DNA of 64,000 bases from a virus. The position numbers and the translations under genes were made by a program. This document shows positions 13,919 through 26,463 of the stretch, one piece after another. Position 1 is the stretch's first letter, and every line of letters begins with the position of its first letter. The DNA is taken from positions 64,001 to 128,000 of the IMG/VR virus record IMGVR_UViG_3300036761_001135; one strand, 5' to 3'. A model generated the notes under the pieces. That model was not told where the DNA came from, made no database searches, and saw only the letters and a list, made by a program, of their open reading frames with translations.

Positions 13919-15454
13919 GTGATGAGACGACTGATTAAGAGACTCAACCATCTGATGGCTTCCGCGAGAGAGATTCAATACGAGGGCAAGGGCGAGAAGG
14001 CGGCGGCGGAAGAAGCCAGGCGCATCGTCAATCTCCTTTCCGTCATGATGGAGCAGGCTGGGTACGAGATTGAGTATTCGTCGAAGGCCGACGAGTGGGT
14101 GGTGTGGGTCGATGGGAAGACCGGCGGTGCTGTGACGCTGTGGAAGAACCCCAAGGGCGACTGGCAGTTGATCAGCGGCGTGCCGGAGATGGCCAAGCTG
14201 AGCAAGAAGCCGTATTCGCACAAGATCGACTTGCTCCGCGATCCGAAGCGCAAGGAGAACCGGGAGGCGTTGCGGTCTGCGACCTTGATAGCCGGAAAGA
14301 TCATGGACAAGACGCGGGATGGGACGCTGACCACGGACTTCTCGCCCAAGTTTTCGACGGCGATACGGGCACGCAAGGACATGGTGGATCCTGGCGGGGC
14401 ATCGGCGATGGGCGAAGAGATGGCGTTTGACATGCACAAGCAGGCCAAGGCGCTGTACCTCAAGGGCTGGGACGAGCACCCGAGCCCGAATGGCAAGCGG
14501 ACGGCCTACGGGCGGACCTTCAAGTTGGGGTCAGTTGACGTGCCGCTGCGCATTATCCAGGAGGACGATGCGGGGAAGGCGTGGCGCGTAGACCGCAAGG
14601 GGCTGCCCACCTGGGAGGCGATGTTTGACGGCAAGGAGTTCAAGTCGGCGGCAGCGGCGGGGCAGGCTGTAGCCGGTTGGTGGAAGCAGGTCGAGGCGGC
14701 ATTCGAGAAGTTGACCAAGGATGGGTACAGAGCGCACGAGGCGGCCTTCAAGGCGCTGTCCAAGGTACGGGAAGAGGACGTGGCGCGGGAGGGGCGAGCG
14801 GAGCTGCCCGAGGCCGAGGAGATGCTCTACGTGGACCAGCAGGCGGGGTTGGCAGTGGGGCAGACCATCGAGCGGGACAACTTACGCATGCACCGCTTCA
14901 ATTCCAGCCTGCGCGTGACGGACGTCACCAATGCGGGGAAGCGTGGCAAGAAGTGTCCCGAGTTCGCCCTGTACAACCTGGACTACGGCCAGCGCGATCC
15001 CAAGGACGTGGCGAAGATCAACGAGGCTTTGAAGGCCATCGTGAAGGCGAAGACCTACGCGCAGGCGGTGGCCATCGCCCGTGGGGTAGCGGCGAAGGAT
15101 TCGCAGCGTGGGATGTCGTTTGCGAGTATTGAGGAGCGCGATCTTCGCGGGGTAGACGTGGAGCCCATGGCTCCGTCTGCTGGGTCCGCGATCCAAGTCG
15201 AGACGCCCACGTTCACGCTGAAGGCGTCGCGCACGGAGTTCGACGTGATGGAGAAGCCACGACCGGGCACGGACGGCCAGGACGTGACGGCGGTGATTCC
15301 GCCGGTGGGCGGCGCGAAGAAGACGGCGATTGCGCGGTTCTATGCGTGGGTGGGATCGCACCAGGCGGAGATCAAGGGCATGACGTTCCGGGAGCTGCTG
15401 CGGGCGATGGCGGCAGCGGATCTGGACTATCACGCTTTTAGCATGTTGGACTGA
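13919..15454 (+). CDS. Hypothetical multi-segment protein; first member of the leader array
   Basis: 511 aa; starts MRRLIKRL; GAGGAGG SD. Confidence 0.75.
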   Translation: MMRRLIKRLNHLMASAREIQYEGKGEKAAAEEARRIVNLLSVMMEQAGYEIEYSSKADEWVVWVDGKTGGAVTLWKNPKGDWQLISGVPEMAKLSKKPYSHKIDLLRDPKRKENREALRSATLIAGKIMDKTRDGTLTTDFSPKFSTAIRARKDMVDPGGASAMGEEMAFDMHKQAKALYLKGWDEHPSPNGKRTAYGRTFKLGSVDVPLRIIQEDDAGKAWRVDRKGLPTWEAMFDGKEFKSAAAAGQAVAGWWKQVEAAFEKLTKDGYRAHEAAFKALSKVREEDVAREGRAELPEAEEMLYVDQQAGLAVGQTIERDNLRMHRFNSSLRVTDVTNAGKRGKKCPEFALYNLDYGQRDPKDVAKINEALKAIVKAKTYAQAVAIARGVAAKDSQRGMSFASIEERDLRGVDVEPMAPSAGSAIQVETPTFTLKASRTEFDVMEKPRPGTDGQDVTAVIPPVGGAKKTAIARFYAWVGSHQAEIKGMTFRELLRAMAAADLDYHAFSMLD

Positions 15455-15466
15455 AGGAGCACGGCC

Positions 15467-16243
15467 ATGACGACCATGAACGATCTGTTTGAGAGCATGG
15501 AGACTGCCCAGGATGAGGCGGAGTTCTTCGATGCGATCCTTGAGGCCGACGACGATCTCCTGGACGAGGTGTTCGACGAGGAAGACGTGGAGCGCCTGGA
15601 GATCTTTGCCCAGCTCATTGGTGCGGCAGAGGCCGGGGCGCTATCCGAAGACCAGGACGACATGTTGGAGGGTTTTCGGAGTTGGATGGCCAAGAAGAAG
15701 ACGCAGATTGCGGGCAAGCTGCCGCCGGGCGCGAAGATGGTGTTCGGCAAGATCGTGAAGGGCGGCAAGGTGGTGGGGGGAGCGGCCAAGAAGGCCGTGG
15801 CGGGGGCGCAGAAGGCGGTCCAGAAGGGTGTGGCGGCCAAGCGGGCGGTGCAGGGCGCGGCGTATCGGTTCACGGACGCGGGCAAGAAGGCCCATGCGGC
15901 GGCGAAGAAGGTGGCGGACACCAAGGGGCGCAAGGCGGGGGACGCGGCGTGGAAGGCTTCCAGGGAAACCTACAAGAAGCACATCAAGGGTGGCGAGAGC
16001 CATACCTATGCCACGGCGCAGGCGCAGAAGGCTGCGTCCCGATTCGGCGGGGAAAAGTCGAAGGCGAAGGCCAAGCCGACCGCTCCTGTGGAGGTCGAAA
16101 AACCCAAGCCGAAGGCTGGGAAGGGCACTCGGAAGAAGACGTCGGTTGCTCCACCCCCTGCGGCAGAGGCACCAGTGAAGAAGACGCGGAAGCGCAAGCC
16201 GAAGATGGAAGACGTGTTTGCCTATGTGCAGGCCGAAGCATAG
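15467..16243 (+). CDS. Acidic N-terminus plus Lys/Ala-rich histone-H1-like protein; leader array member
   Basis: MTTMNDLFES start; ~65 acidic residues, then a strongly basic K/A-rich region. Confidence 0.75.
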   Translation: MTTMNDLFESMETAQDEAEFFDAILEADDDLLDEVFDEEDVERLEIFAQLIGAAEAGALSEDQDDMLEGFRSWMAKKKTQIAGKLPPGAKMVFGKIVKGGKVVGGAAKKAVAGAQKAVQKGVAAKRAVQGAAYRFTDAGKKAHAAAKKVADTKGRKAGDAAWKASRETYKKHIKGGESHTYATAQAQKAASRFGGEKSKAKAKPTAPVEVEKPKPKAGKGTRKKTSVAPPPAAEAPVKKTRKRKPKMEDVFAYVQAEA

Positions 16244-16263
16244 ACGCGAACCTGGGTTCGCCT
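16244..16263. repeat. Palindromic repeat copy 3
   Basis: ACGCGAACCTGGGTTCGCCT directly after TAG and directly before GGAGG. Confidence 0.9.
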
Positions 16264-16273
16264 GGAGGATGAT

Positions 16274-16588
16274 ATGACGACGATGCGGACACTGATCGGG
16301 CGGTTGGAAGAGGGTTCGGATCTGACCGAGCGTGCGGAGATCTTGATCAAGGGCGATATGCAGGCGGTCAAGAAGAGCATCATAGATGCCGTCATGGACA
16401 AGATTGCCATGTCTGGCGTGTATCTCGTGGTGGAAATCAGCCACGACGGCAAGCGGTTTAAGGTGTCTGGAACGGTTAGCGGGGTGGCGGATTTTATTGC
16501 TAGATCCAAGCCTCCGGTTGAGGATGTCAAGATCGTGGAGATCTCGACGGATCGCAACTGGACGCGGAGCAAAGCCGAAGAGGTGTGA
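16274..16588 (+). CDS. Hypothetical protein; leader array member
   Basis: MTTMRTLIGRLEEG start. Confidence 0.75.
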   Translation: MTTMRTLIGRLEEGSDLTERAEILIKGDMQAVKKSIIDAVMDKIAMSGVYLVVEISHDGKRFKVSGTVSGVADFIARSKPPVEDVKIVEISTDRNWTRSKAEEV

Positions 16589-16591
16589 CCC

Positions 16592-17185
16592 ATGACGACG
16601 ATGCGACGACTATCCGGCCTGTTGACCGAGGCGACCATGAAGCGGCAGGGCCAGATCTTGCCGACCGAGCAGCGGGACTACGGGTACTTCGGGCGGATCG
16701 AGTTCCGGTTTGAAAATGCGGACGAGATCTGGGCGGAGACGTTTCGCATGATCATGTCTGAGATGCCAGACGTATCTTCGGCGGCGATTCGGAACTACCT
16801 GGACTCGAAGAGTGGGATGAACTTTGGCGATCTGGTGGCGGCGGAATTGAAGGACACGTTGCCGACCCCGGATACGGCTGCGTATGGCCGGGTGTTCAAT
16901 CCCAGGATGGCGGACGTGAAGCGCATCGTGGCGTCTGTGTTTGGAAAAACTGCCTGGGTACGGAAGCACATCGAGGCGTATGCCAAGGACCAGGACAGCA
17001 CCACCAGCGGGACGATGTCGGACATTGGCCGGTGGGTGAACGCCGCTGTCGATGCGTTTGAGCTAGCACAGGACCAGGAGAAGAAGAAGAACTGGAAACA
17101 GCGGGATGCGGCTCTGCACAGCTTGCAGAAGGCGGCGGACCAGTTGCTTACAACGTCCCGTGCTTGGATGGCGCAGCGTAGGTAA
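16592..17185 (+). CDS. Hypothetical protein; leader array member, paralog of 17234-17854
   Basis: MTTMRRLSGLLTEA start; shares 'RQGQILPTE' and the C-terminal 'SRAWMAQRR' with the next gene. Confidence 0.8.
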   Translation: MTTMRRLSGLLTEATMKRQGQILPTEQRDYGYFGRIEFRFENADEIWAETFRMIMSEMPDVSSAAIRNYLDSKSGMNFGDLVAAELKDTLPTPDTAAYGRVFNPRMADVKRIVASVFGKTAWVRKHIEAYAKDQDSTTSGTMSDIGRWVNAAVDAFELAQDQEKKKNWKQRDAALHSLQKAADQLLTTSRAWMAQRR

Positions 17186-17200
17186 CAGGCAGCGGAGTAG

Positions 17201-17220
17201 ACACGAACCTGGGTTCGCCT
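17201..17220. repeat. Palindromic repeat copy 4
   Basis: ACACGAACCTGGGTTCGCCT, followed by GAAGGAG. Confidence 0.9.
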
Positions 17221-17233
17221 GAAGGAGATCGGC

Positions 17234-17854
17234 ATGGGAAATCTAGGACGGCTAGGCATTCGATTGATGAACGAGTCCTACGGGATCTTTTCGAATGCAA
17301 AAGTGGTGCGCCAGGGGCAGATTCTTCCGACGGAGAATACGTTTAATGGGTACTACGGCGCTCTGGACCATGTGTTGGGGGATATGAAGGCTGCGACCCG
17401 CGTTTGGAACGAGACGTTTTCGATTCTCATATCGGCATATCCAGATGTCGATTCTCAATCCATCAGGGATTTCCTTGATGGAGATGGTGGCCGTCGCTTG
17501 GGAGATGTCGTGATCGACGGATTCATTGACAACATGGGTGCCGCCTATGATTCGCTGGATGAGCATCCGGTCATCGCTCCCGAAGCTGCACGCATGAAGA
17601 GAATGCTATCGGCAGAGATCGCCAGACAGAAGTGGATTTCGAAGGAACTGGAACAATCTCCAATGAGTTCCACAAATGGTTCTTTGAAGAGCGTGGAGTC
17701 AGTGTTGGATCGGGCGAACTACGTTTGGGATGTGGTTAGGTCAGAGGAACAGAAGAAAAACTGGAAAGAGCGAGACAAGGCCATGCACGATCTTCAGAAG
17801 ACGGCAGATGTGCTGTCCACTGTTTCTCGGGCCTGGATGGCACAGAGGAGGTAG
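17234..17854 (+). CDS. Hypothetical protein, paralog of 16592-17185
   Basis: Shared RQGQILPTE, IR.(F/Y)LD...G..GD and KKNWK.RD.A.H.LQK.AD motifs. Confidence 0.8.
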   Translation: MGNLGRLGIRLMNESYGIFSNAKVVRQGQILPTENTFNGYYGALDHVLGDMKAATRVWNETFSILISAYPDVDSQSIRDFLDGDGGRRLGDVVIDGFIDNMGAAYDSLDEHPVIAPEAARMKRMLSAEIARQKWISKELEQSPMSSTNGSLKSVESVLDRANYVWDVVRSEEQKKNWKERDKAMHDLQKTADVLSTVSRAWMAQRR

Positions 17855-17858
17855 GGCT

Positions 17859-18197
17859 ATGACGACAATGCGAGACATTTTTGAGTCAGTTAGGTACATG
17901 CGTATCTTGAATTTATTGGGTGGTATTGAGGGTTTGGAGTCGGCCATCAAGGCGTCGAATTTCCAGGAGATGGCTGGGAGTCCAGGTGTTGAATTCAGGT
18001 TTGTCGTAGCGAACAAGAGCGGACATGCCACCATCTTCTGGCAGGACATGGCACCGAAGGGGGGGTACTACGTGATTGAGCTACGGAAGTCGGTGTCGTC
18101 CAGTGAGCCCTATGATGTTGGGGATCGGATATCCGAGGGGGACTTGCGGAAAGAATTTTACAAAATGGTAGGTGTGCCAGCGCCTAAACAAGGCTAA
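17859..18197 (+). CDS. Hypothetical protein; leader array member
   Basis: MTTMRDIFES start at ATG 17859. Confidence 0.75.
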   Translation: MTTMRDIFESVRYMRILNLLGGIEGLESAIKASNFQEMAGSPGVEFRFVVANKSGHATIFWQDMAPKGGYYVIELRKSVSSSEPYDVGDRISEGDLRKEFYKMVGVPAPKQG

Positions 18198-18218
18198 CCG
18201 ATGAGCGGAGGCAGTGTC

Positions 18219-18524
18219 ATGACGAAAATGAGATCATTGATTGGAGAATTGTCAGAGGTTGTTTCGCCAATGAGGAAATCAGCTTTTACAAAAATGATCA
18301 ACAAAGGAGACAGGGGTGACGTTGTCATCTTGGATTTTGATTCCATACGAAGGCTGGAAACTAACTGCAACAAACTTGCAGATCAAATCAGTGAATTGAA
18401 AGACATTGTTCATGACGGAGTAGATTCTAATGATGCAGCGCAGATGCGAAAATACAAGATGTTGTTTAAGGATATGAAGGATGTGAAGGTTGAGATGGAT
18501 GTATTATGGAGTGCGTTGCTTTGA
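18219..18524 (+). CDS. Hypothetical protein (AT-rich); leader array member
   Basis: MTKMRSLIGELSE start with a GGAGG SD. Confidence 0.7.
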   Translation: MTKMRSLIGELSEVVSPMRKSAFTKMINKGDRGDVVILDFDSIRRLETNCNKLADQISELKDIVHDGVDSNDAAQMRKYKMLFKDMKDVKVEMDVLWSALL

Positions 18525-18543
18525 TCTATTCTGAGGTGATATT

Positions 18544-18711
18544 ATGACGACGATGTGGGACATATTCGAGGCGATATCGAAGAAGATCGGTCCCGACAAG
18601 TTTGAGTTCAAGGGCAAGAAGGGTCACTGGCGCACGGTGCGTGGGAGCCAGGTCTTCTTTCCAGATGACGGGTCTGAGCCCATGGGCCTTCCGAAGGCCA
18701 TGCGGAGGTAG
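18544..18711 (+). CDS. 55-aa protein absent from the ORF track; leader array member
   Basis: GAGGTG SD; MTTMWDIFEAISKKIGPDKFEFKGKKGHWRTVRGSQVFFPDDG... Confidence 0.75.
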   Translation: MTTMWDIFEAISKKIGPDKFEFKGKKGHWRTVRGSQVFFPDDGSEPMGLPKAMRR

Positions 18712-18719
18712 GGTCACTG

Positions 18720-19157
18720 ATGGATGAACGGGCACAGGTTGCGGCGGGTCTCTTGGATCGCGTGCGGGCGATGCTGCGGGAGCGTCGCCTGACGGCTAAG
18801 GAGGCCCCACAGCCGCGCCCGAGCCAGGGGGCTGCTCGTGCTACGGCTCGCTTATGGGCGCCGCTTCTGGGGACGAACAAGCGCCCTGTGGGGGAGGTGC
18901 GCGTGGTGGTCATCGTGCCGAACGATCCGGCGGAGGCGGCGGACGTGCATGTGCGGTGGTCGCGGGCGGGCTTTGGGTTCTGGTACGTGAAGACGGCGGA
19001 CGTGGGGGTGGTGGGGGAGGCCGAGGACGCGGACCTCGCAGCGGTGGAGATGATCCTGACGGCGGTGGGCTGGACGGCGTCGGGATCGGTCCCGTTGCGG
19101 TCGATGAATATGATGTTCCCCAAGGTGCGCCGGAGCGTGAGCGACGTAGCGCGATAA
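18720..19157 (+). CDS. Hypothetical protein
   Basis: 145-aa ORF in the operon. Confidence 0.6.
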   Translation: MDERAQVAAGLLDRVRAMLRERRLTAKEAPQPRPSQGAARATARLWAPLLGTNKRPVGEVRVVVIVPNDPAEAADVHVRWSRAGFGFWYVKTADVGVVGEAEDADLAAVEMILTAVGWTASGSVPLRSMNMMFPKVRRSVSDVAR

Positions 19158-19167
19158 GGAGTGAGCC

Positions 19168-19623
19168 ATGGCAACGATGCGAACATTGGTGAAGGACATG
19201 AGGGCGCTGGTCGAGGGCGGCGTGGTAGAGGAACGTGGCCACATGGGCCTGTCCGAGGGACGGATCGACGAGGCCAGCATCTACTCCAAGGGTTCGTGGA
19301 TGATGTACGAGCAGCAGGCGCAGGAGATGTTTCTGAAGGCTGCGATTCCAGGAATCGAGAAGCTTGCGGGTAGCAAGGGAGACGTCAAGGTGGAGGTGTC
19401 TGGTTCCACCGTGATGTTAACCTACGATGGTGAAGACGCCAGCGATTTCTCACTGGAGTTCACGGCCTACATGAGAATCAACGAGCGAACTGTCGATATA
19501 GGCGCGACGGTCGTGAGCGCACAGGTAAAGGGCCAGAAGTTGCCCATGAAGACGATCCAGAAGGGCGACGTCACGCCACAGGATGTGGTTAATATGTTTG
19601 CGGACGTGTTCGGAAGACATTGA
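19168..19623 (+). CDS. Hypothetical protein; leader array member
   Basis: MATMRTLVKDMRALVEG start; AAGGAG SD. Confidence 0.75.
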   Translation: MATMRTLVKDMRALVEGGVVEERGHMGLSEGRIDEASIYSKGSWMMYEQQAQEMFLKAAIPGIEKLAGSKGDVKVEVSGSTVMLTYDGEDASDFSLEFTAYMRINERTVDIGATVVSAQVKGQKLPMKTIQKGDVTPQDVVNMFADVFGRH

Positions 19624-19665
19624 TATATTGTTAAATTCGGCGATTGAACTGTGAAAGAGTGAATC

Positions 19666-20250
19666 ATGGCAACGATGCGAACCTTATTCGAGGCGGTCGA
19701 GGAGCGGGAGTGGATCTTGGATCGTCCCTGGACGGTGGGGGCGTCGGCGTATCAGGCAGCCTTGAACGTCCATGAGCCGTGGGTCGCCGAGATCAGTCCG
19801 ATGCAGTACGCGCACATGAGCAAGAGTGCCAAGGCGCAGTACGACAAGAAGCGGGCGGGGGAGTGGGAGGCGTCGGCGGCGGCGAAGGACAAGTGGCGGC
19901 AGGCGGTGTTGCAGGCGTTTGCCGAGGGGAAGTTCCAGCGCAAGGACGCGGACGTACATCCTGACGCCGACATGGCGATCTTCCTGGCGCAGCAGGCGGC
20001 GGAGAAGGCGGTTGCGGCGGCGCAGGCCAAGGAGCGCGGACGGGAGAACGCCATTACGCGGGCCGACCAGGTGAAGGTGGGCGACACGGTCTGGGTGGTG
20101 CTCTCGGGCAGCTACCAGACGGTGACCAAGGTCTCGCAGAAGTCCGTGGTGTTGACGGGCAAGTTCGGGCCGATGAAGGTCACGATGTCGGAGAAGTCGC
20201 CGCAGTTGAACTGGAAGAGCTACAATGACCTGCACGGCAAGCAGGGATAG
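19666..20250 (+). CDS. Hypothetical protein; leader array member (possible C-terminal SH3-like barrel)
   Basis: MATMRTLFEA start; 'VKVGDTVWV..VTKVSQKSVVL'. Confidence 0.75.
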   Translation: MATMRTLFEAVEEREWILDRPWTVGASAYQAALNVHEPWVAEISPMQYAHMSKSAKAQYDKKRAGEWEASAAAKDKWRQAVLQAFAEGKFQRKDADVHPDADMAIFLAQQAAEKAVAAAQAKERGRENAITRADQVKVGDTVWVVLSGSYQTVTKVSQKSVVLTGKFGPMKVTMSEKSPQLNWKSYNDLHGKQG

Positions 20251-20259
20251 GATAGGAAC

Positions 20260-20670
20260 ATGACGATGAGAACCTTGATCGAGCAGATCGAGCGGGAGAT
20301 GGAAGAGGCGGGCGACCTGCCGGAACATCTTCAAAGCGAAGGTTTCGTCGGATGGGGCAACCTAGAGCAAGGGTTGCCAGTCATAGATCCCAGCCGTTTC
20401 AATACACTAGACAAGACCTATAAATTGCTAGACAAAACGATAAAACCACTTGAGAAACTACATCGAGAAATTGTAAAGGCTAAAGATGAGCTGAAAGATT
20501 ACAATCCAAAGGCATATCGTCATGGCGAAAGTGATACGTTGATGTATAATGCAATGTCGCATTTGTCATATCTTGGAGATGCGACAATGAAACATATAAG
20601 TCTAGTCTATGATGTCTTGATGATCTTGCATAAGGCTGGAGAGGCTGCGATGCCACAACCGAGGGATTGA
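20260..20670 (+). CDS. Hypothetical protein; leader array member
   Basis: MTMRTLIEQIEREMEEA start; GC-rich leader and AT-rich body. Confidence 0.75.
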   Translation: MTMRTLIEQIEREMEEAGDLPEHLQSEGFVGWGNLEQGLPVIDPSRFNTLDKTYKLLDKTIKPLEKLHREIVKAKDELKDYNPKAYRHGESDTLMYNAMSHLSYLGDATMKHISLVYDVLMILHKAGEAAMPQPRD

Positions 20671-20688
20671 GAAATACAGGAGAGAGCC

Positions 20689-20955
20689 ATGACGATGCGC
20701 GCCTTGATCGAGCAGTTGGAGCAGATGGCCATGTTGGAAGATGTGGCAAAGCTAGTACGCATGACATCGACGATTAGGATTGCTGTCGTCAAGGAAGGCC
20801 AGATTGTTGGCTGGTATCGAAGTATAAAAGTGGCGTCAAGACATGGCAAAGAGTTGTACTCAGTTTTGATTGATTCTCTGATTCCAGGGAAAGATCCTGA
20901 CAAGATTTCATCCTATGTAATCGCCAAGGATGTACCGGCTTGGGACCAAGATTGA
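20689..20955 (+). CDS. Hypothetical protein; leader array member
   Basis: MTMRALIEQLEQM start. Confidence 0.7.
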   Translation: MTMRALIEQLEQMAMLEDVAKLVRMTSTIRIAVVKEGQIVGWYRSIKVASRHGKELYSVLIDSLIPGKDPDKISSYVIAKDVPAWDQD

Positions 20956-20966
20956 GAGGTTAGGTG

Positions 20967-21383
20967 ATGACGATGCGCACCCTGATCGAGCGGTTTGAAG
21001 GGATCATGGAGGCCCGCAGTGCGAATGTCGCCATCAGGCAGATAGCGGAGTTGTCCATGGAAATTCGTGCGATCCCGCGTGTTCGATCCAACGAGATTGC
21101 GCTTGAGGACAGGAACACGGCGGAGGACGTCTATCGCAATGCCCGGCGGATCGCCGACCGAGTCTTTTCCGGTCTCCTGGACGTTGGGAACGACGAGCTT
21201 GCCCACGAAATTGAGGACATAGCTACCGACATGGATGCCGCTTACAAGGCGTTCGAGTCGGCGTGGATGAGGGTGCGAAAGGCTGGCACCACGGCATCGG
21301 ATCCATCTGCTGTGGTGGAGAGTTATGAGCGTCTACGGGGGCAGGTGGATCGTTTGAAGAAAGCCATTGGAGGGATCGGATGA
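20967..21383 (+). CDS. Hypothetical protein; leader array member
   Basis: MTMRTLIERFEGIMEA start. Confidence 0.75.
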   Translation: MTMRTLIERFEGIMEARSANVAIRQIAELSMEIRAIPRVRSNEIALEDRNTAEDVYRNARRIADRVFSGLLDVGNDELAHEIEDIATDMDAAYKAFESAWMRVRKAGTTASDPSAVVESYERLRGQVDRLKKAIGGIG

Positions 21384-21988
21384 GGCACTTGATCGAGCGA
21401 ATGGAACGGATCATGGAGGCCCGTGGCACGGAGGTGCTCGTGAAGGAGCTGCCGGACGTGCTGCGCAAGGCGTTGAAGGACGTTGGCTACCGGAGCCGGG
21501 ACATCGCCGTGGTGCCGCAGGCGCTGGTCAGCCTGAACCCCTACGCGGGGGACGGGGAGCGGGGCTTCGCGGTATTGGTGAACTTGTCCACGGGCGCGAC
21601 CAAGACGGTGCAGGGCGACTGGGGCGGGTACAGCCCGGTTGGGAAGCCCTCCATCGACCAGGATCGGGGCGAGCATCCGCTGCCAAGGGACGGCGTGGCC
21701 ATCGTGGGGTCGAGTGGCGGGCGGGGCACCTACGCGACGATTTACGTGCATCCAGACAGCGTGGTGCCGTTGCTGCCGGGGGACGTGGAGATGACGGACC
21801 GCGAGGCGGGCATCCTGCGGAGCATGGCGATGACGTCGAGCTATCGCAAGGAGCTGTTCGCGGACATGAAGGTGCAGACGAGCGAGGTAGACGCGCTGAT
21901 CGAGCGTGGCTGGATTGCACGGAACAAGGCCGGGGCGTTGAGTCTGACAACGGCGGGCAAGAACGCGGCGGCGTCTGCTCACAAGTGA
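21380..21988 (+). CDS. Hypothetical protein; leader array member
   Basis: MRHLIERMERIMEA start; the C-terminus may be a winged helix. Confidence 0.75.
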   Translation: MRHLIERMERIMEARGTEVLVKELPDVLRKALKDVGYRSRDIAVVPQALVSLNPYAGDGERGFAVLVNLSTGATKTVQGDWGGYSPVGKPSIDQDRGEHPLPRDGVAIVGSSGGRGTYATIYVHPDSVVPLLPGDVEMTDREAGILRSMAMTSSYRKELFADMKVQTSEVDALIERGWIARNKAGALSLTTAGKNAAASAHK

Positions 21989-22000
21989 AAGAGGTAAGAG

Positions 22001-22336
22001 ATGGCACGGAGCATGAAGAGTCTAATCGAGGGAATGCAGAAGATAATGGAGGCCCAGCTTCCCGGAGGGGATCATGGCCGACCAAGAAGAATTGTGAAGA
22101 TGGCAGCGGAACAGATGCAAAGCAGTGAAGGAAAAGATTGGTTACTGCGCGACGAAAGAGGAACATGGGAGAAAGAAGCTACTCGACTTATAGATCAAGT
22201 GAAGGAAAAGGCAGAACAGCACGGGTTGAGTGATTCCGATGTTGATGAGCAGATTGCAACATATTTGTCTATAATGGTTTTGCAGACTCTTATTAATGAT
22301 GCAAAGAAGGGATCAAGGAAAAGAGCAAAGAAGTGA
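22001..22336 (+). CDS. Hypothetical protein; leader array member
   Basis: MARSMKSLIEGMQKIMEA start; AT-rich body. Confidence 0.75.
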   Translation: MARSMKSLIEGMQKIMEAQLPGGDHGRPRRIVKMAAEQMQSSEGKDWLLRDERGTWEKEATRLIDQVKEKAEQHGLSDSDVDEQIATYLSIMVLQTLINDAKKGSRKRAKK

Positions 22337-22398
22337 ACTTTGGAATATGTCATGAAATTGGACAAGAACGCGGCTTCGGCTGCGCACGGACGGTGAGG

Positions 22399-23757
22399 AT
22401 GGACAGCATGGGTTCACTGATCTTGTTGGTGGAGCATCGCATGCTCACGGAAGAGACAATGGCCGTGACCCCGGCGTTGATTGCCAAGCTGCGTAAAGAC
22501 TTCCTCGTGCTCATGGGCAATGTGTCCAGGGTGGACACGGCAGAGAAGCTGACGACCTTCAGGTTGGGCGTGAAGACATTCAGCGATCTGCTAGAGCGCA
22601 TCATGATCACGGCCAACGAGTATCTGGTAGATGTGGCGCAGTTAGCAGAGTTGAAGTTTGACAATGCGTTGGCGTCGGATGCCCGTTACTTGGCGGACCA
22701 CATGAGCGATGCGTGGAAGCTGCACGAAGAGCTGATCGTGCCTGGACCGAGTTTGGAGTCCCTTGTTCGTGATGCTGCTGGGAATAGCTATCATCTTGGC
22801 ATGGTGAATGAGCGATACCTATCTCGCTTTACGAGTAAGGCGAAGAAGTGGGACAGCGCAGTACGGCGGGTGGCGCCCAAGGCATGGAAGTGGCTTGAGA
22901 GCGCGGCTACGACTGTTGCTAAGGGCGCGGCATATGGTGGACGAGGGGCGCTAAAGATTGATCGCGGCATTGGGACATTGCGTGAAATGGCTGGGTTCAA
23001 GGTGCGGTTGGACGGGTTCGTGGGGAGTGATTTCGAGGTAGAGGGAGTGCAGAAGTTCGAGCGTGGGTTGCAGTTATTCCGCCAGTTGGCGAGCGCTCGA
23101 TTTCCTGCGCTGCTGCGGAACACCACGCCGTTTGTGTTGGTTTTCTCTGGCGATCCTTCCGGTGGAAAAAATGCAGCGGGTTGGACTGCGCAAGCCATTT
23201 TCGTTTCCTCCGCTGGAATGCATAAGGACGCTAAGGGGATCGCACATTTGATGGCCCACGAGCTAGGGCACGGGATCTATCAAAACTACCTGAGTGGTGA
23301 GGCGCAGAACGCTTGGTTCTCGTTCATTAGAGGAAACACGGATCCGATAGATTTGCGGCAAGTTCTCAAGGACATTGGCGATGACGGGTGGATTCATGAG
23401 CCGAACGTCTACAAGTCCGACCCGATTCGGTGGTTGCAGGTTCGCGGGCTAGGTCAGGATAAGCGTTATCGGTTTGAGCGCGGCGAGGACATCCGTCGTT
23501 GGATCGAGGGTGGTGGCGACCCGGTGGTCCAGGTGACACGTCATCAGGTCACGGCCTATGCGAATACGAATCCCGAGGAGGCGTTTTGTGAGGCGCTGGG
23601 GATGCTTGTGGCCTATGGTCCGAAGACGGTGCTCCCAGAGGTGCGCCAGATGCTGGGCCTTTTACTGCCGCAGCTCAAGACCGAGAGCGTTGAGTTGGGC
23701 GCGTTATTGGTGCGGCTAGAATCGGTGGGCAACGCGGCAGTCGCTCACGGACAATGA
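22399..23757 (+). CDS. Zincin-like metallopeptidase domain protein; leader array member
   Basis: HExxH motif 'AHELGH' and a downstream 'YANTNPEEAFCEA'; likely start MDSMGSLI at 22399. Confidence 0.75.
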   Translation: MDSMGSLILLVEHRMLTEETMAVTPALIAKLRKDFLVLMGNVSRVDTAEKLTTFRLGVKTFSDLLERIMITANEYLVDVAQLAELKFDNALASDARYLADHMSDAWKLHEELIVPGPSLESLVRDAAGNSYHLGMVNERYLSRFTSKAKKWDSAVRRVAPKAWKWLESAATTVAKGAAYGGRGALKIDRGIGTLREMAGFKVRLDGFVGSDFEVEGVQKFERGLQLFRQLASARFPALLRNTTPFVLVFSGDPSGGKNAAGWTAQAIFVSSAGMHKDAKGIAHLMAHELGHGIYQNYLSGEAQNAWFSFIRGNTDPIDLRQVLKDIGDDGWIHEPNVYKSDPIRWLQVRGLGQDKRYRFERGEDIRRWIEGGGDPVVQVTRHQVTAYANTNPEEAFCEALGMLVAYGPKTVLPEVRQMLGLLLPQLKTESVELGALLVRLESVGNAAVAHGQ

Positions 23758-23805
23758 TCATGGATGGCGAAGCGGCGAATATTCAGCCGTAGAAAGGTGG
23801 ACTCG

Positions 23806-24213
23806 ATGGGACGGAACATGCGGAATCTGATCGATGATATGCAGTCGCTTTTGGAGCGGAGCGGCGTGAGTGCGTCTGTGCAGGTTGGCGAGCGGTACAT
23901 GACCTACACGAAGGAAGGCGACCGCCTTGTCTTCACGACATGGTCGTGGGTTTCCCCGTATTACGGGAAGGTTCCTGCGAAGGATGCGATCTATATCCAT
24001 ACAGAGGGTCGCACGCCAGACGATCTGGACACGCTGATTGATCGGCAGAAGAGTGTTTACGGTTCCAAGCCTGGGCTGAAGAGTTACGAGGGAAAAGAGG
24101 AAGAGTACCCGTACACGACGGGGCGCTACACGGGACCGGACATAGAAGACATCAAGCGCTTGAAGGGCACGACCGTGCGTTTGAGCGACGGGAAGCCCGA
24201 GCCAATCGCATAG
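23806..24213 (+). CDS. Hypothetical protein; leader array member
   Basis: MGRNMRNLIDDMQSLLE start after AAGGTGG. Confidence 0.7.
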   Translation: MGRNMRNLIDDMQSLLERSGVSASVQVGERYMTYTKEGDRLVFTTWSWVSPYYGKVPAKDAIYIHTEGRTPDDLDTLIDRQKSVYGSKPGLKSYEGKEEEYPYTTGRYTGPDIEDIKRLKGTTVRLSDGKPEPIA

Positions 24214-24214
24214 G

Positions 24215-24913
24215 ATGAACGACGGTAGGAAGACAGGAGGCCCCATGCAGCCCTCGAACAGCTTGATCGTGAATGGTGAGAAGGTGTCGCTGCCCAAAGC
24301 GGTGTTGGACCTGGGCGTGCGGGGCACCAACTACATCGACGATGAGGAGCCCTGCTTGCGCAACAAGCCGCGCACGGCGAAGGTTTCGCATCTTGTGCTT
24401 CACGAGACGGCTGGGAACAGCGCGACGGGGTGCAAGGACACGTTGCGTGAGAAGAAGCTCGGCGTGCATCTGATCTTGGGCAAGGATGGCCTGCTGTCGT
24501 GTCACGCGGACTTGGCGTTGGACATCTGTTTTCACGGAAACCAGCTCAATTCCACCTCTGTTGGGATCGAGGTTGTGAACGCCTATCGGCCGGAATTCGC
24601 AAGGAAGCCGTGCGGTCCTGTGTTGCCGGCGAATTGGTGGACGTGGGTGCCGCCTGGTCATGCGCGGACCTACCAGGCACCGCTTGGAATCCAGGTGGCG
24701 TGCATTCAAGCGCTGGTTCCTTGGCTGTGCGAATTGATGAAGATCCCATATGTGTTTCCGACGAAGAACTTTAACGCGAAGACACCCAAGATCTCGGGCT
24801 GGAAGGCTCCTCCATTGGGGTGGTACGCGAAGCCAGGACCGGGCGTTGTGGCGCATTCTGATTACAGTTCGCATAGTGACGGCCGTTACCTACTAGAGCA
24901 GTTGATCGTATGA
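24215..24913 (+). CDS. N-acetylmuramoyl-L-alanine amidase (Amidase_2), probable endolysin
   Basis: 'LVLHETAG', 'GVHLILGKDG', 'HGNQLNSTSVGIEVVN' and 'GVVAHSD' fit the Zn-amidase motifs; the start may be ATG 24245. Confidence 0.85.
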   Translation: MNDGRKTGGPMQPSNSLIVNGEKVSLPKAVLDLGVRGTNYIDDEEPCLRNKPRTAKVSHLVLHETAGNSATGCKDTLREKKLGVHLILGKDGLLSCHADLALDICFHGNQLNSTSVGIEVVNAYRPEFARKPCGPVLPANWWTWVPPGHARTYQAPLGIQVACIQALVPWLCELMKIPYVFPTKNFNAKTPKISGWKAPPLGWYAKPGPGVVAHSDYSSHSDGRYLLEQLIV

Positions 24914-24924
24914 AAGGGTCGCAC

Positions 24925-25269
24925 ATGGAAACCATGCTGAAGCTGTTCGAGGCGAGGGCCAATGCTGGCGAGCCAGTGGTTGCGGATTTTCGGAAGGCAT
25001 GGGGCGAGATGGAGGAGTGGGCGAGCCAGTTGGGGCGGGCATTGAACCGGGAGATCGGCGGGAAGGCGCGCTTCTTGGGAGGTGTTGGCGTGTCGAGAAC
25101 CGCGCTTGATACGGTGGAGATCTATGTGAATCTGGATACTCCTGGGGAGCGCGAGAAGGATGAGACGTTGCGGCAGGCCATGACCTGGCTGAAGCAGCAC
25201 ACGAAGAGCACCTGGGAGTTGAAGGAGCGCTATGGGAAGCCATCGTTGGTGGCCACATACGATCTCTGA
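24925..25269 (+). CDS. Hypothetical protein; leader array member
   Basis: METMLKLFEA start. Confidence 0.7.
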   Translation: METMLKLFEARANAGEPVVADFRKAWGEMEEWASQLGRALNREIGGKARFLGGVGVSRTALDTVEIYVNLDTPGEREKDETLRQAMTWLKQHTKSTWELKERYGKPSLVATYDL

Positions 25270-25278
25270 AGGGATGCG

Positions 25279-25620
25279 TTGAGAATGAATTCAAGCGACC
25301 GATTGCGTGCCTTGCTCGACGATTTGCCTCCGGCTCCCCGAAGGGTGGTGCTGTCCGAGGCTGACGAGCGGATAATGCGGTCGTTGCGGACGCAGGGCGA
25401 GCGTGCGGTACGCGGTCGGCTTGTGACGCGCTATCGGTTTGAGGCGGTGGAGAGGCCGCGTGGGATTTCGTTGGTTATGCGGATCGAGGGGCGGCATGCG
25501 ATGTCTGTGGCGCAGCAGCTTGCCAAGCGGTTTGGCATGGCGGAAGATATTGGGAATGCCGAGGTGACCCGCACCGAGCGGGGGGCCGTGTTGGAGCTGC
25601 GGCCACGGGAGACGCGATGA
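25279..25620 (+). CDS. Hypothetical protein
   Basis: 113-aa ORF; 'RLRALLDDL...LSEA' weakly resembles the leader. Confidence 0.6.
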   Translation: MRMNSSDRLRALLDDLPPAPRRVVLSEADERIMRSLRTQGERAVRGRLVTRYRFEAVERPRGISLVMRIEGRHAMSVAQQLAKRFGMAEDIGNAEVTRTERGAVLELRPRETR

Positions 25621-25781
25621 TTGTCGAGGTAAAGAAGATCCAGAGCACGAGGAAGGGTCGAAAATCTTCGGTTGATTTGCGGCGGTCTCGCACGTCGGGT
25701 ATTGTGCCGTTGCCGATATCCATGAGCACCAATGCGCCGTTGCCGGCGGTCCCAGCCACAGGCGGGCCATAGGAGAATCTG

Positions 25782-26117
25782 ATGAACGCGAAAATTTCCA
25801 AGATGAACACCATGCGGAAGATCATGCGCGAGGTTGAGCTGTCGAACGGCGGCGAACCGATGGGCGAGTCCGTGAACGCGGGGCTGATAGACCGCATGGC
25901 GAAGGCCATGTTGAACAGCCCGAAGCTGGACTCGCTGACGGGGCGCATCTTCGACACGGACCAGTTGGAGATGTTCCATGGGTTGATGTTGGAGCCCTTG
26001 CGGGCTCTGATTGCGAAGGCCCTGGACGTCGCCGGCGTGGAGGTTTCCGGTGGCGTGTTGGCCAAGGCAGGCAGGGAAATGAAGAGCGCAGCACGGGGCG
26101 ACATCGGCGTTGAGTAG
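25782..26117 (+). CDS. Hypothetical protein; leader array member
   Basis: Contains MNTMRKIMREVE near the N-terminus; AGGAG SD. Confidence 0.7.
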   Translation: MNAKISKMNTMRKIMREVELSNGGEPMGESVNAGLIDRMAKAMLNSPKLDSLTGRIFDTDQLEMFHGLMLEPLRALIAKALDVAGVEVSGGVLAKAGREMKSAARGDIGVE

Positions 26118-26133
26118 ACGCCTGGAGGAAACC

Positions 26134-26463
26134 ATGACGTTACGCAGGTTGGTTCATGACATGCGGCGTGCTCTGGACGAGGGAGCGCCGGAGTTTCGAT
26201 CCGGGCGCGCTGAAGTGGAGCGCTTGATCGACGCCATGCTGTCTGGGTCGCAGGTGTCGCCAAAGGCACAGGCGGTCATCGGCAAGGACGGCGACGTGAA
26301 CGCGCTTGTGGCAGAGCTGCGCCTAGCGCTGTACCCCATCGTCGTACACACCCTGCAAAAGCTCGGCGGTAAGGTGAGCGGGTCGAGCAACGTGAAGGCT
26401 GCCTTGCGCGGCCTGGCCCGGGAGGAGCGCGAGCACCCCCCGAGGCCCGCCGTGGAGCTGTAG
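26134..26463 (+). CDS. Hypothetical protein; last leader array member
   Basis: GGAGG SD; MTLRRLVHDMRRALDEG start; weak similarity to the preceding ORF ('LID.M..', 'VSG'). Confidence 0.7.
   Translation: MTLRRLVHDMRRALDEGAPEFRSGRAEVERLIDAMLSGSQVSPKAQAVIGKDGDVNALVAELRLALYPIVVHTLQKLGGKVSGSSNVKAALRGLAREEREHPPRPAVEL

Follow-up and report, generated by a model that had tools for sequence, protein, structure and literature searches.

A shared N-terminal leader on about thirty unrelated proteins of an uncultured T4-type phage: a candidate capsid-targeting tag

Why should some twenty consecutive genes of a phage, coding for proteins that otherwise have nothing in common, all begin with the same short peptide? 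This question is raised by a locus in IMG/VR virus record IMGVR_UViG_3300036761_001135 (168,688 bp, about 91% complete), from which we analyzed bases 64,001-128,000, a stretch of 64,000 nt hereafter called the window; positions in the window are prefixed w, those in the whole genome g, and the genome under study is designated G000. The source is a T4-type myovirus without close kin among cultured phages: megablast of 21 kb against a phage collection gave no match, tblastn with the capsid protein reached at best about 31-34% identity to any isolated phage, and tblastn with one array cargo returned weak Bordetella phage matches only. At w13919-26463 lie 18-20 consecutive plus-strand genes that start with a common leader (array 1). 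We report here that selection acts on this leader at the protein level, and propose, chiefly from comparisons of sequences, that it is probably a capsid-targeting propeptide removed by the prohead protease, marking an internal-protein repertoire expanded about tenfold.

Aligned on its core Met, the leader reads M-R-x-L-I-E-x-[LMF]-E-x, often with M-T-T before the core, and usually ends in hydrophobic-x-Glu followed by a small residue; a GGAGG-type ribosome-binding site stands 6-9 nt before the first ATG in most leader genes. The N-termini listed in a preliminary description of this DNA were all recovered in place on the plus strand. A position matrix, built from the 18 window leaders only, was scored on all 2,812 Met sites with at least 40 following codons in the six frames of the 168.7-kb genome: the top 31 comprised the 18 seeds, 12 N-termini of a second array and one stray internal Met of the tail sheath, and a scan with a hidden Markov model gave the same picture. 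The second array lies on the plus strand outside the window (g138,048-147,434) and holds about 12 more leader genes, with leaders such as MRSLIRQLEEA, MRILIERLEEG and MRSIFEAAE. Both arrays together amount to about 30 leader genes over about 19 kb, or 11% of the genome; the array of about 20 genes described earlier is hence real, and makes up only about 60% of the repertoire. The leader occurs far beyond chance, is strictly N-terminal, and is confined to the two plus-strand arrays.

A 13th match in the second array, at g140279, is an in-frame internal leader copy. The 304-aa protein encoded at g139709-140623 (L008:4710-5624) carries at residue 191 another leader in frame, MQSLFQRLEEE; in the relative G002 a protein (L016:1853-2671) begins with two tandem leaders, MRRLIESLGSTD-MRAILERLE. 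Such internal or tandem copies could represent cassettes that were fused, or precursors that yield two products when cut.

Beyond about residue 20 the leader proteins are unrelated, as had been claimed: at E<1e-5, BLASTP sorts the 34 profile matches in G000 (about 30 of which are true N-termini) into 33 families, the sole linked pair being a nested one. They range from 55 to 511 aa and in isoelectric point (pI) from 4.9 to 11.5. Among the approximately 30 cargo proteins none scored above the Pfam cut-off, the only hits being Amidase_2 and AdoMet_dc, both in leaderless genes; the sole PHROGs match was to PHROG 8020, a family without an assigned function; Protein Data Bank (PDB) sequence searches with three cargo proteins gave no match, and the 511-aa protein found no usable match in a protein atlas. 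Of the functional labels given earlier to individual cargoes, that of a basic DNA-binder has as its sole basis the Lys/Ala-rich composition and pI of 9.5 of the 258-aa protein. This protein is conserved in the relatives G001 and G002 by BLASTP, has counterparts with similar N-termini in G003-G005, and is probably a core member of the array.

If the bodies have nothing in common, what might the shared end be for? One clue is how the leader terminates. The motif [LIMFV]-x-E-[AGS] is present in 22 of 28 leaders, bearing out the earlier remark that most end in this way, as against 16 of 204 other genes (8%; Fisher p=1.5e-15, a value that overstates independence, the leaders being related), so that the motif is not equally common elsewhere. 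Counted from the core Met, its Glu occupies residue 6, 10 or 13-14; this implies propeptides of 9-17 aa, and the tag comes in short, medium and long forms. In T4 the propeptides are 10-20 aa and gp21 cleaves after L/I-x-E (PMC9026906, PMC5694885). As an external check, 266 T4 open reading frame (ORF) N-termini were scored with the leader matrix (a slash marks the cleavage position, actual or candidate, here and below): the gp24 propeptide MAKINELLRE/S ranked first of the 266, the internal proteins IPIII and IPII (MKTYQEFIAE/A) ranked 9 and 10, and gp67 (MEGLIE/A) scored 5.5, equivalent to about fifth. Processed T4 head proteins outscore the rest (Mann-Whitney p=0.012), and four of ten known gp21 substrates stand in the top 11 (hypergeometric p=3e-4). 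In having hydrophobic residues at 4 and 8, and a small residue behind the Glu at 10, the tag thus resembles a head propeptide of the T4 type.

The machinery that would read such a tag is encoded in the same genome. The gp23-type capsid protein noted earlier is present (PF07068, E=1e-52), and so are a gp20-type portal (PF07230, E=4e-59) and a T4-type S77 prohead protease (PF03420, with 35.6 bits in the search of this genome and 51 bits for the entire ORF); the Portal_T4, Peptidase_S77 and Gp23 genes lie just before and across the window start, and the 286-aa and 324-aa proteins encoded between portal and protease have no family match. The protease is fused to an Ala/Glu-rich coiled-coil region of about 370 aa (L009:10338-13133; L040-L043; the proteins of the relatives measure 539-553 aa), which is probably the scaffold and has at least eight [LIM]xE[AS] sites. 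In T4, gp21 and gp22 are separate proteins. The fusion protein starts M-P-Q-L-L-I-E/T, matching QLLIET of T4 gp21; the closer relatives G004 and G006 have LLIE/T and LLIE/S, and the orthologues in G007 and G008 start differently. The capsid protein begins M-Q-A-R-N-I-V-E-E in G000 (outside the window) and M-E-A-R-x-L-L-E-Q in relatives, so that the consensus of the clade, M-[EQ]-A-R-x-[LI]-[LV]-E-[QE], has the R-x-hydrophobic-hydrophobic-E core of the leader; it ranks eighth of 203 non-leader genes of G000 in leader likeness, and its conserved hydrophobic-hydrophobic-E-N and x-E-D-T-L-S-T-N segments, 17-28 residues before the conserved LRRVFPNLIA, are candidate maturation sites. A gp24-like second capsid paralogue with the leader was not found in G000. 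Complex prediction with the 202-aa leader protein (3-row alignment) and the scaffold part (5-row alignment) scored 0.02, a value that speaks neither for nor against binding.

The protease ORF of G000 also has an in-frame insertion of 390 aa upstream of the window (g60562-61731; L009:10563-11732), absent from the G004 and G006 orthologues. It starts with Cys after GELDHP, ends in TGN before Ser and has a LAGLIDADG-like stretch (FAAFMGIYLAEGS); the insertion looks like an intein with a homing endonuclease. Pfam gave no intein domain.

The behavior of the locus among relatives, fetched with the second tube protein (five close ones, then 12 further IMG/VR loci), separates leader from cargo. All loci with at least 54% tube identity have leader genes directly after the tube gene, with leaders such as MRKLIEKLGNAIEG, MRELIEKK, MKKLIEELG, MRQLIERLRT and MKDLLNRLEE; a locus with 33% tube identity has no array, its tube gene lying almost directly before the tape measure gene. 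The leader-bearing relatives span a G+C content of 40-59%; the leader is old and is kept across this range. In relatives the tube-to-hub interval measures 7.6-14.5 kb; in the complete 194.9-kb relative G006 the leader occurs in two clusters, one wrapping around the contig ends. In 11 phages about 97 leader N-termini head 63 cargo families, in accord with the earlier expectation of a constant leader and changing cargo. The comparison of G000 with G001 catches this turnover at close range: DNA identity is 93-97% across the region, yet whole cassettes differ. At gene 3 homology spans the ribosome-binding site and leader and stops at w16307, the cargo being 151 aa in G001 against 104 aa in G000; a further break, at w19259, lies about 30 codons inside its gene; at w20303 G001 lacks two genes of G000, the indel being flanked by two leader copies; and the zincin-like gene at w22399 and its neighbor are missing too. 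Of 19 cargo families of the G000 array, 11 are present in G001, seven in G002 and two in each of G003-G005. This resembles the polymorphic ip loci of T-even phages, where the capsid targeting sequence (CTS) alone stays conserved (PMC3012670). The repeated ribosome-binding site and leader codons would offer a substrate for homologous recombination, by which whole cassettes may be inserted, deleted or swapped in frame, and which could explain the fast turnover of the arrays.

A case in point is the 452-aa protein at w22399-23757, earlier called a metallopeptidase: an invariant HExxH (26 homologues) and weak fold matches, mainly to thermolysin, M1 and LTA4H-type zincins, support that label; Foldseek of the model against the PDB gave no match at E<=0.001. 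Besides the protein itself, databases contain 31 homologues. The leader stands at the start of those with 63-88% identity (MMRYILERCEHRILTEE, MRQLIERHEHRLIMED), and two at 35-37% start MRELIERLILTER, while most of those at 29-36% start a few residues before a conserved LRKDFL motif and have no leader; one of the leaderless homologues is in another large phage-like contig, among orphan, PhoH and methyltransferase genes, and its neighbors have no common N-terminal tag. In an AlphaFold2 model (mean predicted local distance difference test score, pLDDT, 85) residues 1-13 form a detached helix with pLDDT <50 and the confident fold begins at about residue 20. Because distant homologues do without the leader and it lies outside the modeled fold, the leader is an add-on to the zincin-like cargo.

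Is it then the peptide that is conserved, or the DNA beneath it? A shared N-terminus could be the by-product of a nucleic-acid element without peptide function, either a translational or regulatory signal or a recombination junction akin to the intergenic early-promoter and stem-loop elements (PeSLs). Breakpoints between relatives do fall at the leader, a prefix ATGACGACG recurs, some junctions have a 14-bp palindrome, and PeSL-mediated shuffling is documented in T4-type phages (PMC2839356). The codons speak otherwise: across 30 leader copies the second codon positions at residues 4, 5 and 8 are 1.00, 0.93 and 0.81 identical, whereas first and third positions are 0.25-0.45 identical, near random; all six codons are used for both Arg2 and Leu4; and the 30 nt upstream are barely conserved except for the ribosome-binding site and the prefix. 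Selection therefore acts on the peptide, which was moreover retained across relatives of such different G+C content, and conservation at the nucleotide level alone, raised earlier as the contrary outcome, was not found. The T4 late-promoter consensus TATAAATA is absent from the plus strand, and within w13919-26463 that strand has no sigma-70-type promoters and no excess of terminator-like sites; because these promoter scans showed no enrichment, the timing of array expression was taken from position and strand. We rejected the nucleotide-signal reading on the codon statistics and give it hardly any probability. The palindrome itself, CGAAC-YYRR-GTTCG, often extended to ACGCGAACCTGGGTTCGC, is found in 33 copies genome-wide at gene junctions, two of them inside array 1 (w16247, w17204) and another three inside the second; it may serve for termination, for processing or as a binding site. 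Also very improbable is descent of the array from one old paralogous family, in which the bodies diverged past recognition and an N-terminal helix without targeting role was kept. The genes at w16592 and w17234 are recognizable paralogues and orphan phage genes evolve fast; still, such a family would have to encompass sizes of 55-511 aa and differing predicted architectures, one cargo family occurs elsewhere without the leader, and at one position G000 and G001 join the same leader to different cargo.

Two further explanations accept a functional peptide and give it another role. The leader might be a docking helix for some other partner, such as a chaperone, a host factor, or the tail or baseplate as in extracellular contractile injection systems (eCIS), with the Glu pattern reflecting nothing but an amphipathic helix. 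Array 1 does lie between tail tube and baseplate hub genes, Glu at positions 6, 10 and 13-14 fits helical periodicity, and six leaders are without a clean cleavage motif. We nevertheless hold this to be unlikely: no tail gene has the leader, the tube lumen is taken by a 1,291-aa tape measure protein, outside the cargo a similar N-terminus is found only in head components (capsid protein and protease-scaffold), it is T4 head propeptides and not tail proteins that score best with the profile, and a helix does not require the small residue after Glu. It is also improbable, and in our estimate more so, that the tagged proteins are building blocks of the prohead core or inner body, comparable to T4 gp67/gp68 or the phiKZ inner body, which are degraded or retained rather than delivered. 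Such a role would suit the resemblance to the start of T4 gp67, the few clade-wide members (the acidic-then-basic 258-aa protein and the MRKIMREVE protein) and the Lys/Ala-rich protein, which looks like a DNA condenser; against it, most members are gained or lost between near-identical phages, unlike structural parts, and enzyme-like cargo, namely two zincin-like proteins, is not scaffold-like.

We return to the capsid-targeting propeptide. Here the leader would form an amphipathic helix of 9-17 residues, with hydrophobic residues at 1, 4, 5 and 8 of M-R-x-L-I-E-x-L-E-E, by which a newly made protein would dock on the assembling prohead core, built of the protease fused to its coiled-coil scaffold; the S77 protease would then cut after Glu in the hydrophobic-x-Glu-small motif and leave the mature cargo inside the head, from where it may exit with the DNA into the host and act early. 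In this manner the tag would be put on about 30 unrelated proteins from two late-strand arrays. Core binding, cleavage, virion residence, ejection and early action are steps that we infer. Of the earlier proposal, the capsid-targeting, protease-cleaved leader agrees with every sequence test run; an injected-protein system with anti-defense or host-takeover function would go beyond what these tests show. Several points weigh against this reading. The phage has no cultured relative and is known here from sequence alone; T4 IPI, Alt, gp21 and gp22 score poorly with the leader profile; six of 28 leaders, those of the 511-aa and 452-aa proteins included, are without a strict Glu-small site, and the relatedness of the 28 makes the Fisher test overstate their independence; the arrays are located in the tail module and after fiber genes, not next to head genes; and a head of T4 size would be heavily loaded by thirty cargo species reaching 57 kDa. 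Direct homology of the leader to the CTS carried by T4's internal proteins is, as a strict claim, not supported, the ranks being mixed and the likeness over about 10 residues weak; tags as short as these do not suffice to demonstrate homology.

Set beside known systems, the locus is closest to the internal proteins of T4: IPI, IPII, IPIII and Alt are unrelated proteins with a short N-terminal propeptide that ends in hydrophobic-x-Glu-small, as here (PMC9026906, PMC3012670); S77 protease, gp23 capsid and gp20 portal are alike in both; and the CTS and the leader agree in position 10, a Glu, and in positions 4 and 8, which are hydrophobic (MKTYQEFIAE and MELITELFDE against MRSLIRQLEE). T4, however, tags three or four genes; this phage has about 30 in two long tandem late-region arrays with another tag sequence, and is known from its genes alone. 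The L-I-E core is shared with gp67 MEGLIE/A and gp21 QLLIE/T, as with the MPQLLIE/T of this phage's own protease; gp24, gp67, gp21 and gp22 are conserved structural or assembly proteins occurring once per genome, in contrast to the variable cargo set found here. The giant phages phiKZ, 201phi2-1 and SPN3US also have many head-internal proteins cut after Glu by a gp21-related protease, some paralogues sharing a propeptide (PMC5694885, PMC9026906). Those systems have been studied by virion proteomics; their propeptides are mostly >100 residues with an S/A-x-E motif, and the genes, some of them paralogous, are scattered. The present phage combines a short propeptide and a T4-like motif with non-paralogous cargo and arrayed genes. 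PeSL shuffling in the T4-type phages phi1/RB49 swaps orphan cassettes between near-identical phages at short repeated junctions, as is seen here (PMC2839356). PeSLs, however, place an intergenic sigma-70 early promoter together with a stem-loop beside each orphan gene, an arrangement not found in array 1, where what recurs is the ribosome-binding site followed by the opening 10-15 codons, with the peptide in frame. Payloads of eCIS/PVC likewise have an N-terminal tag on diverse genes near sheath and tube genes, but that signal is disordered and of about 50 residues, against 9-17 residues with a protease-type end; moreover eCIS are tailocin-like, without capsid or DNA-packaging genes, and here capsid, portal and prohead protease are in the same 168.7-kb genome. 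We class the array system as a much enlarged form of the T4 CTS/internal-protein system, belonging to an uncultured T4-type clade.

The features of the locus are collected in Table 1. Most of the array genes bear the leader as had been stated, the exceptions being w17234-17854, w18720-19157 and w25279-25620, with a degenerate one or none, and the Amidase_2 gene, with none.

Table 1. Array 1 and its landmarks in the window (aa, amino acids; a slash marks the candidate cleavage position)
Feature	Position	Strand	N-terminus	Remarks
gp23-type major capsid gene, 3' part	w41..766	+		full gene g63156-64766; Pfam Gp23 E=1e-52
Tail sheath, 1,057 aa, upstream of array	w9062..12235	+		Pfam Phage_sheath_1, PHROG 23
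Two gp19-type tail tube genes, conserved left array border	w12769-13308, w13348-13911	+		Pfam Phage_T4_gp19
Leader gene 1, 511 aa	w13919..15454	+	(V)MRRLIKRLNHLMASA...	leader core, no clear Glu site; G001 has an orthologue and G002 a partial one
Leader gene 2, 258 aa	w15467..16243	+	MTTMNDLFE/S	N-terminal third acidic, followed by a basic, Lys/Ala-rich region; pI 9.5
Leader gene 3, 104 aa	w16274..16588	+	MTTMRTLIGRLEE/G	different cargo in G001
Leader gene 4, 197 aa	w16592..17185	+	MTTMRRLSGLLTE/A	PHROG 8020, function not assigned by that family
Paralogue of gene 4, 206 aa	w17234..17854	+	MGNLGRLGIRLMNE/S	degenerate leader
Leader gene, 112 aa	w17859..18197	+	MTTMRDIFE/S	
Leader gene, 101 aa	w18219..18524	+	MTKMRSLIGELSE/V	
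Leader gene, 55 aa	w18544..18711	+	MTTMWDIFE/A	basic
Array gene, 145 aa	w18720..19157	+	MDERAQVAAGLLDRVRAMLRE	no clear leader; conserved in G001, G002, G005
Leader gene, 151 aa	w19168..19623	+	MATMRTLVKDMRALVE/G	G001 version 266 aa
Leader gene, 194 aa	w19666..20250	+	MATMRTLFE/A	weak sub-threshold ProQ-C-like match
Leader gene, 136 aa	w20260-20670	+	MTMRTLIEQIEREMEE/A	absent from G001
Leader gene, 88 aa	w20689-20955	+	MTMRALIEQLEQMAMLE/D	absent from G001
Leader gene, 138 aa	w20967..21383	+	MTMRTLIERFEGIME/A	
Leader gene, 202 aa	w21380..21988	+	MRHLIERMERIME/A	orthologues in G001, G002
Leader gene, 111 aa	w22001..22336	+	MARSMKSLIEGMQKIME/A	
Leader gene, 452 aa, zincin-like	w22399..23757	+	MDSMGSLILLVEHRMLTEE...	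absent from G001
Leader gene, 135-149 aa	w23764..24213	+	...MGRNMRNLIDDMQSLLE/R	absent from G001
Amidase_2 (peptidoglycan amidase)	w24215..24913	+		no leader, not counted as cargo; Pfam E=1e-8
Leader gene, 114 aa	w24925..25269	+	METMLKLFE/A	
Array gene, 113 aa	w25279..25620	+	...SSDRLRALLDDL...	at most degenerate leader; pI 11.5
Leader gene, 104 aa	w25803..26117	+	MNTMRKIMREVE...	G001-G005 share this cargo
Last array gene, 109 aa	w26134..26463	+	MTLRRLVHDMRRALDE/G	divergent leader
Baseplate hub, conserved right border	w28445..29257	+		Pfam T4_baseplate

The gene order across the region is sheath, two tubes, array 1, three minus-strand genes, baseplate hub and the 1,291-aa tape measure gene. 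The sheath protein is unusually long: the Pfam sheath domains cover only its last 270 or so residues and the PHROG 23 match extends back to about residue 533, so that extra domains make up most of the protein. The three small minus-strand genes between array 1 and the hub (w26468-28132; 166, 97 and 87 aa) stand in a genome that is otherwise almost wholly plus-strand; they are kept in G001, and gene content there differs in G003-G005. Directly 3' of the capsid gene, a 554-aa plus-strand ORF (w884-2548) has a Mom-like domain (Pfam PF25680) together with PHROG matches of the HNH/endonuclease VII type, and is possibly a homing endonuclease or a DNA-modification fusion. Each array also houses a leaderless enzyme gene: that in array 1 is Amidase_2, that in array 2 (L008:8631-9227) is AdoMet decarboxylase-like. 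Distant relatives have a small, holin-like membrane protein (MDLNSLKSKKL...) in the same interval as array 1, on account of which we place lysis genes in the array region.

What would such a repertoire mean for the phage? The class of pre-made proteins delivered to the host includes anti-restriction factors (T4 IPI*) and host-modifying enzymes (Alt). If the tag acts like the T4 CTS, the two arrays would be a sorted catalog of such proteins, almost all of them orphans. A bolder extension, which we put forward tentatively and think rather doubtful, is a plug-in delivery platform, wherein any gene recombined behind the 10-15-codon leader would be loaded, trimmed and injected ahead of the DNA, giving dozens of effectors per virion that are reshuffled between siblings on ecological time scales; delivered zincin-type proteases could then destroy host defense proteins before phage gene expression. 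With the leader as a simple sequence mark, candidate virion cargo can be sought in metagenomic T4-type phages; should the leader act as proposed, it would also give those who engineer protein delivery with phage heads a second targeting tag of natural origin. In that case, too, the roughly tenfold expansion, the two arrays and the in-frame exchange would show capsid cargo evolving in the way of an integron-style effector library.

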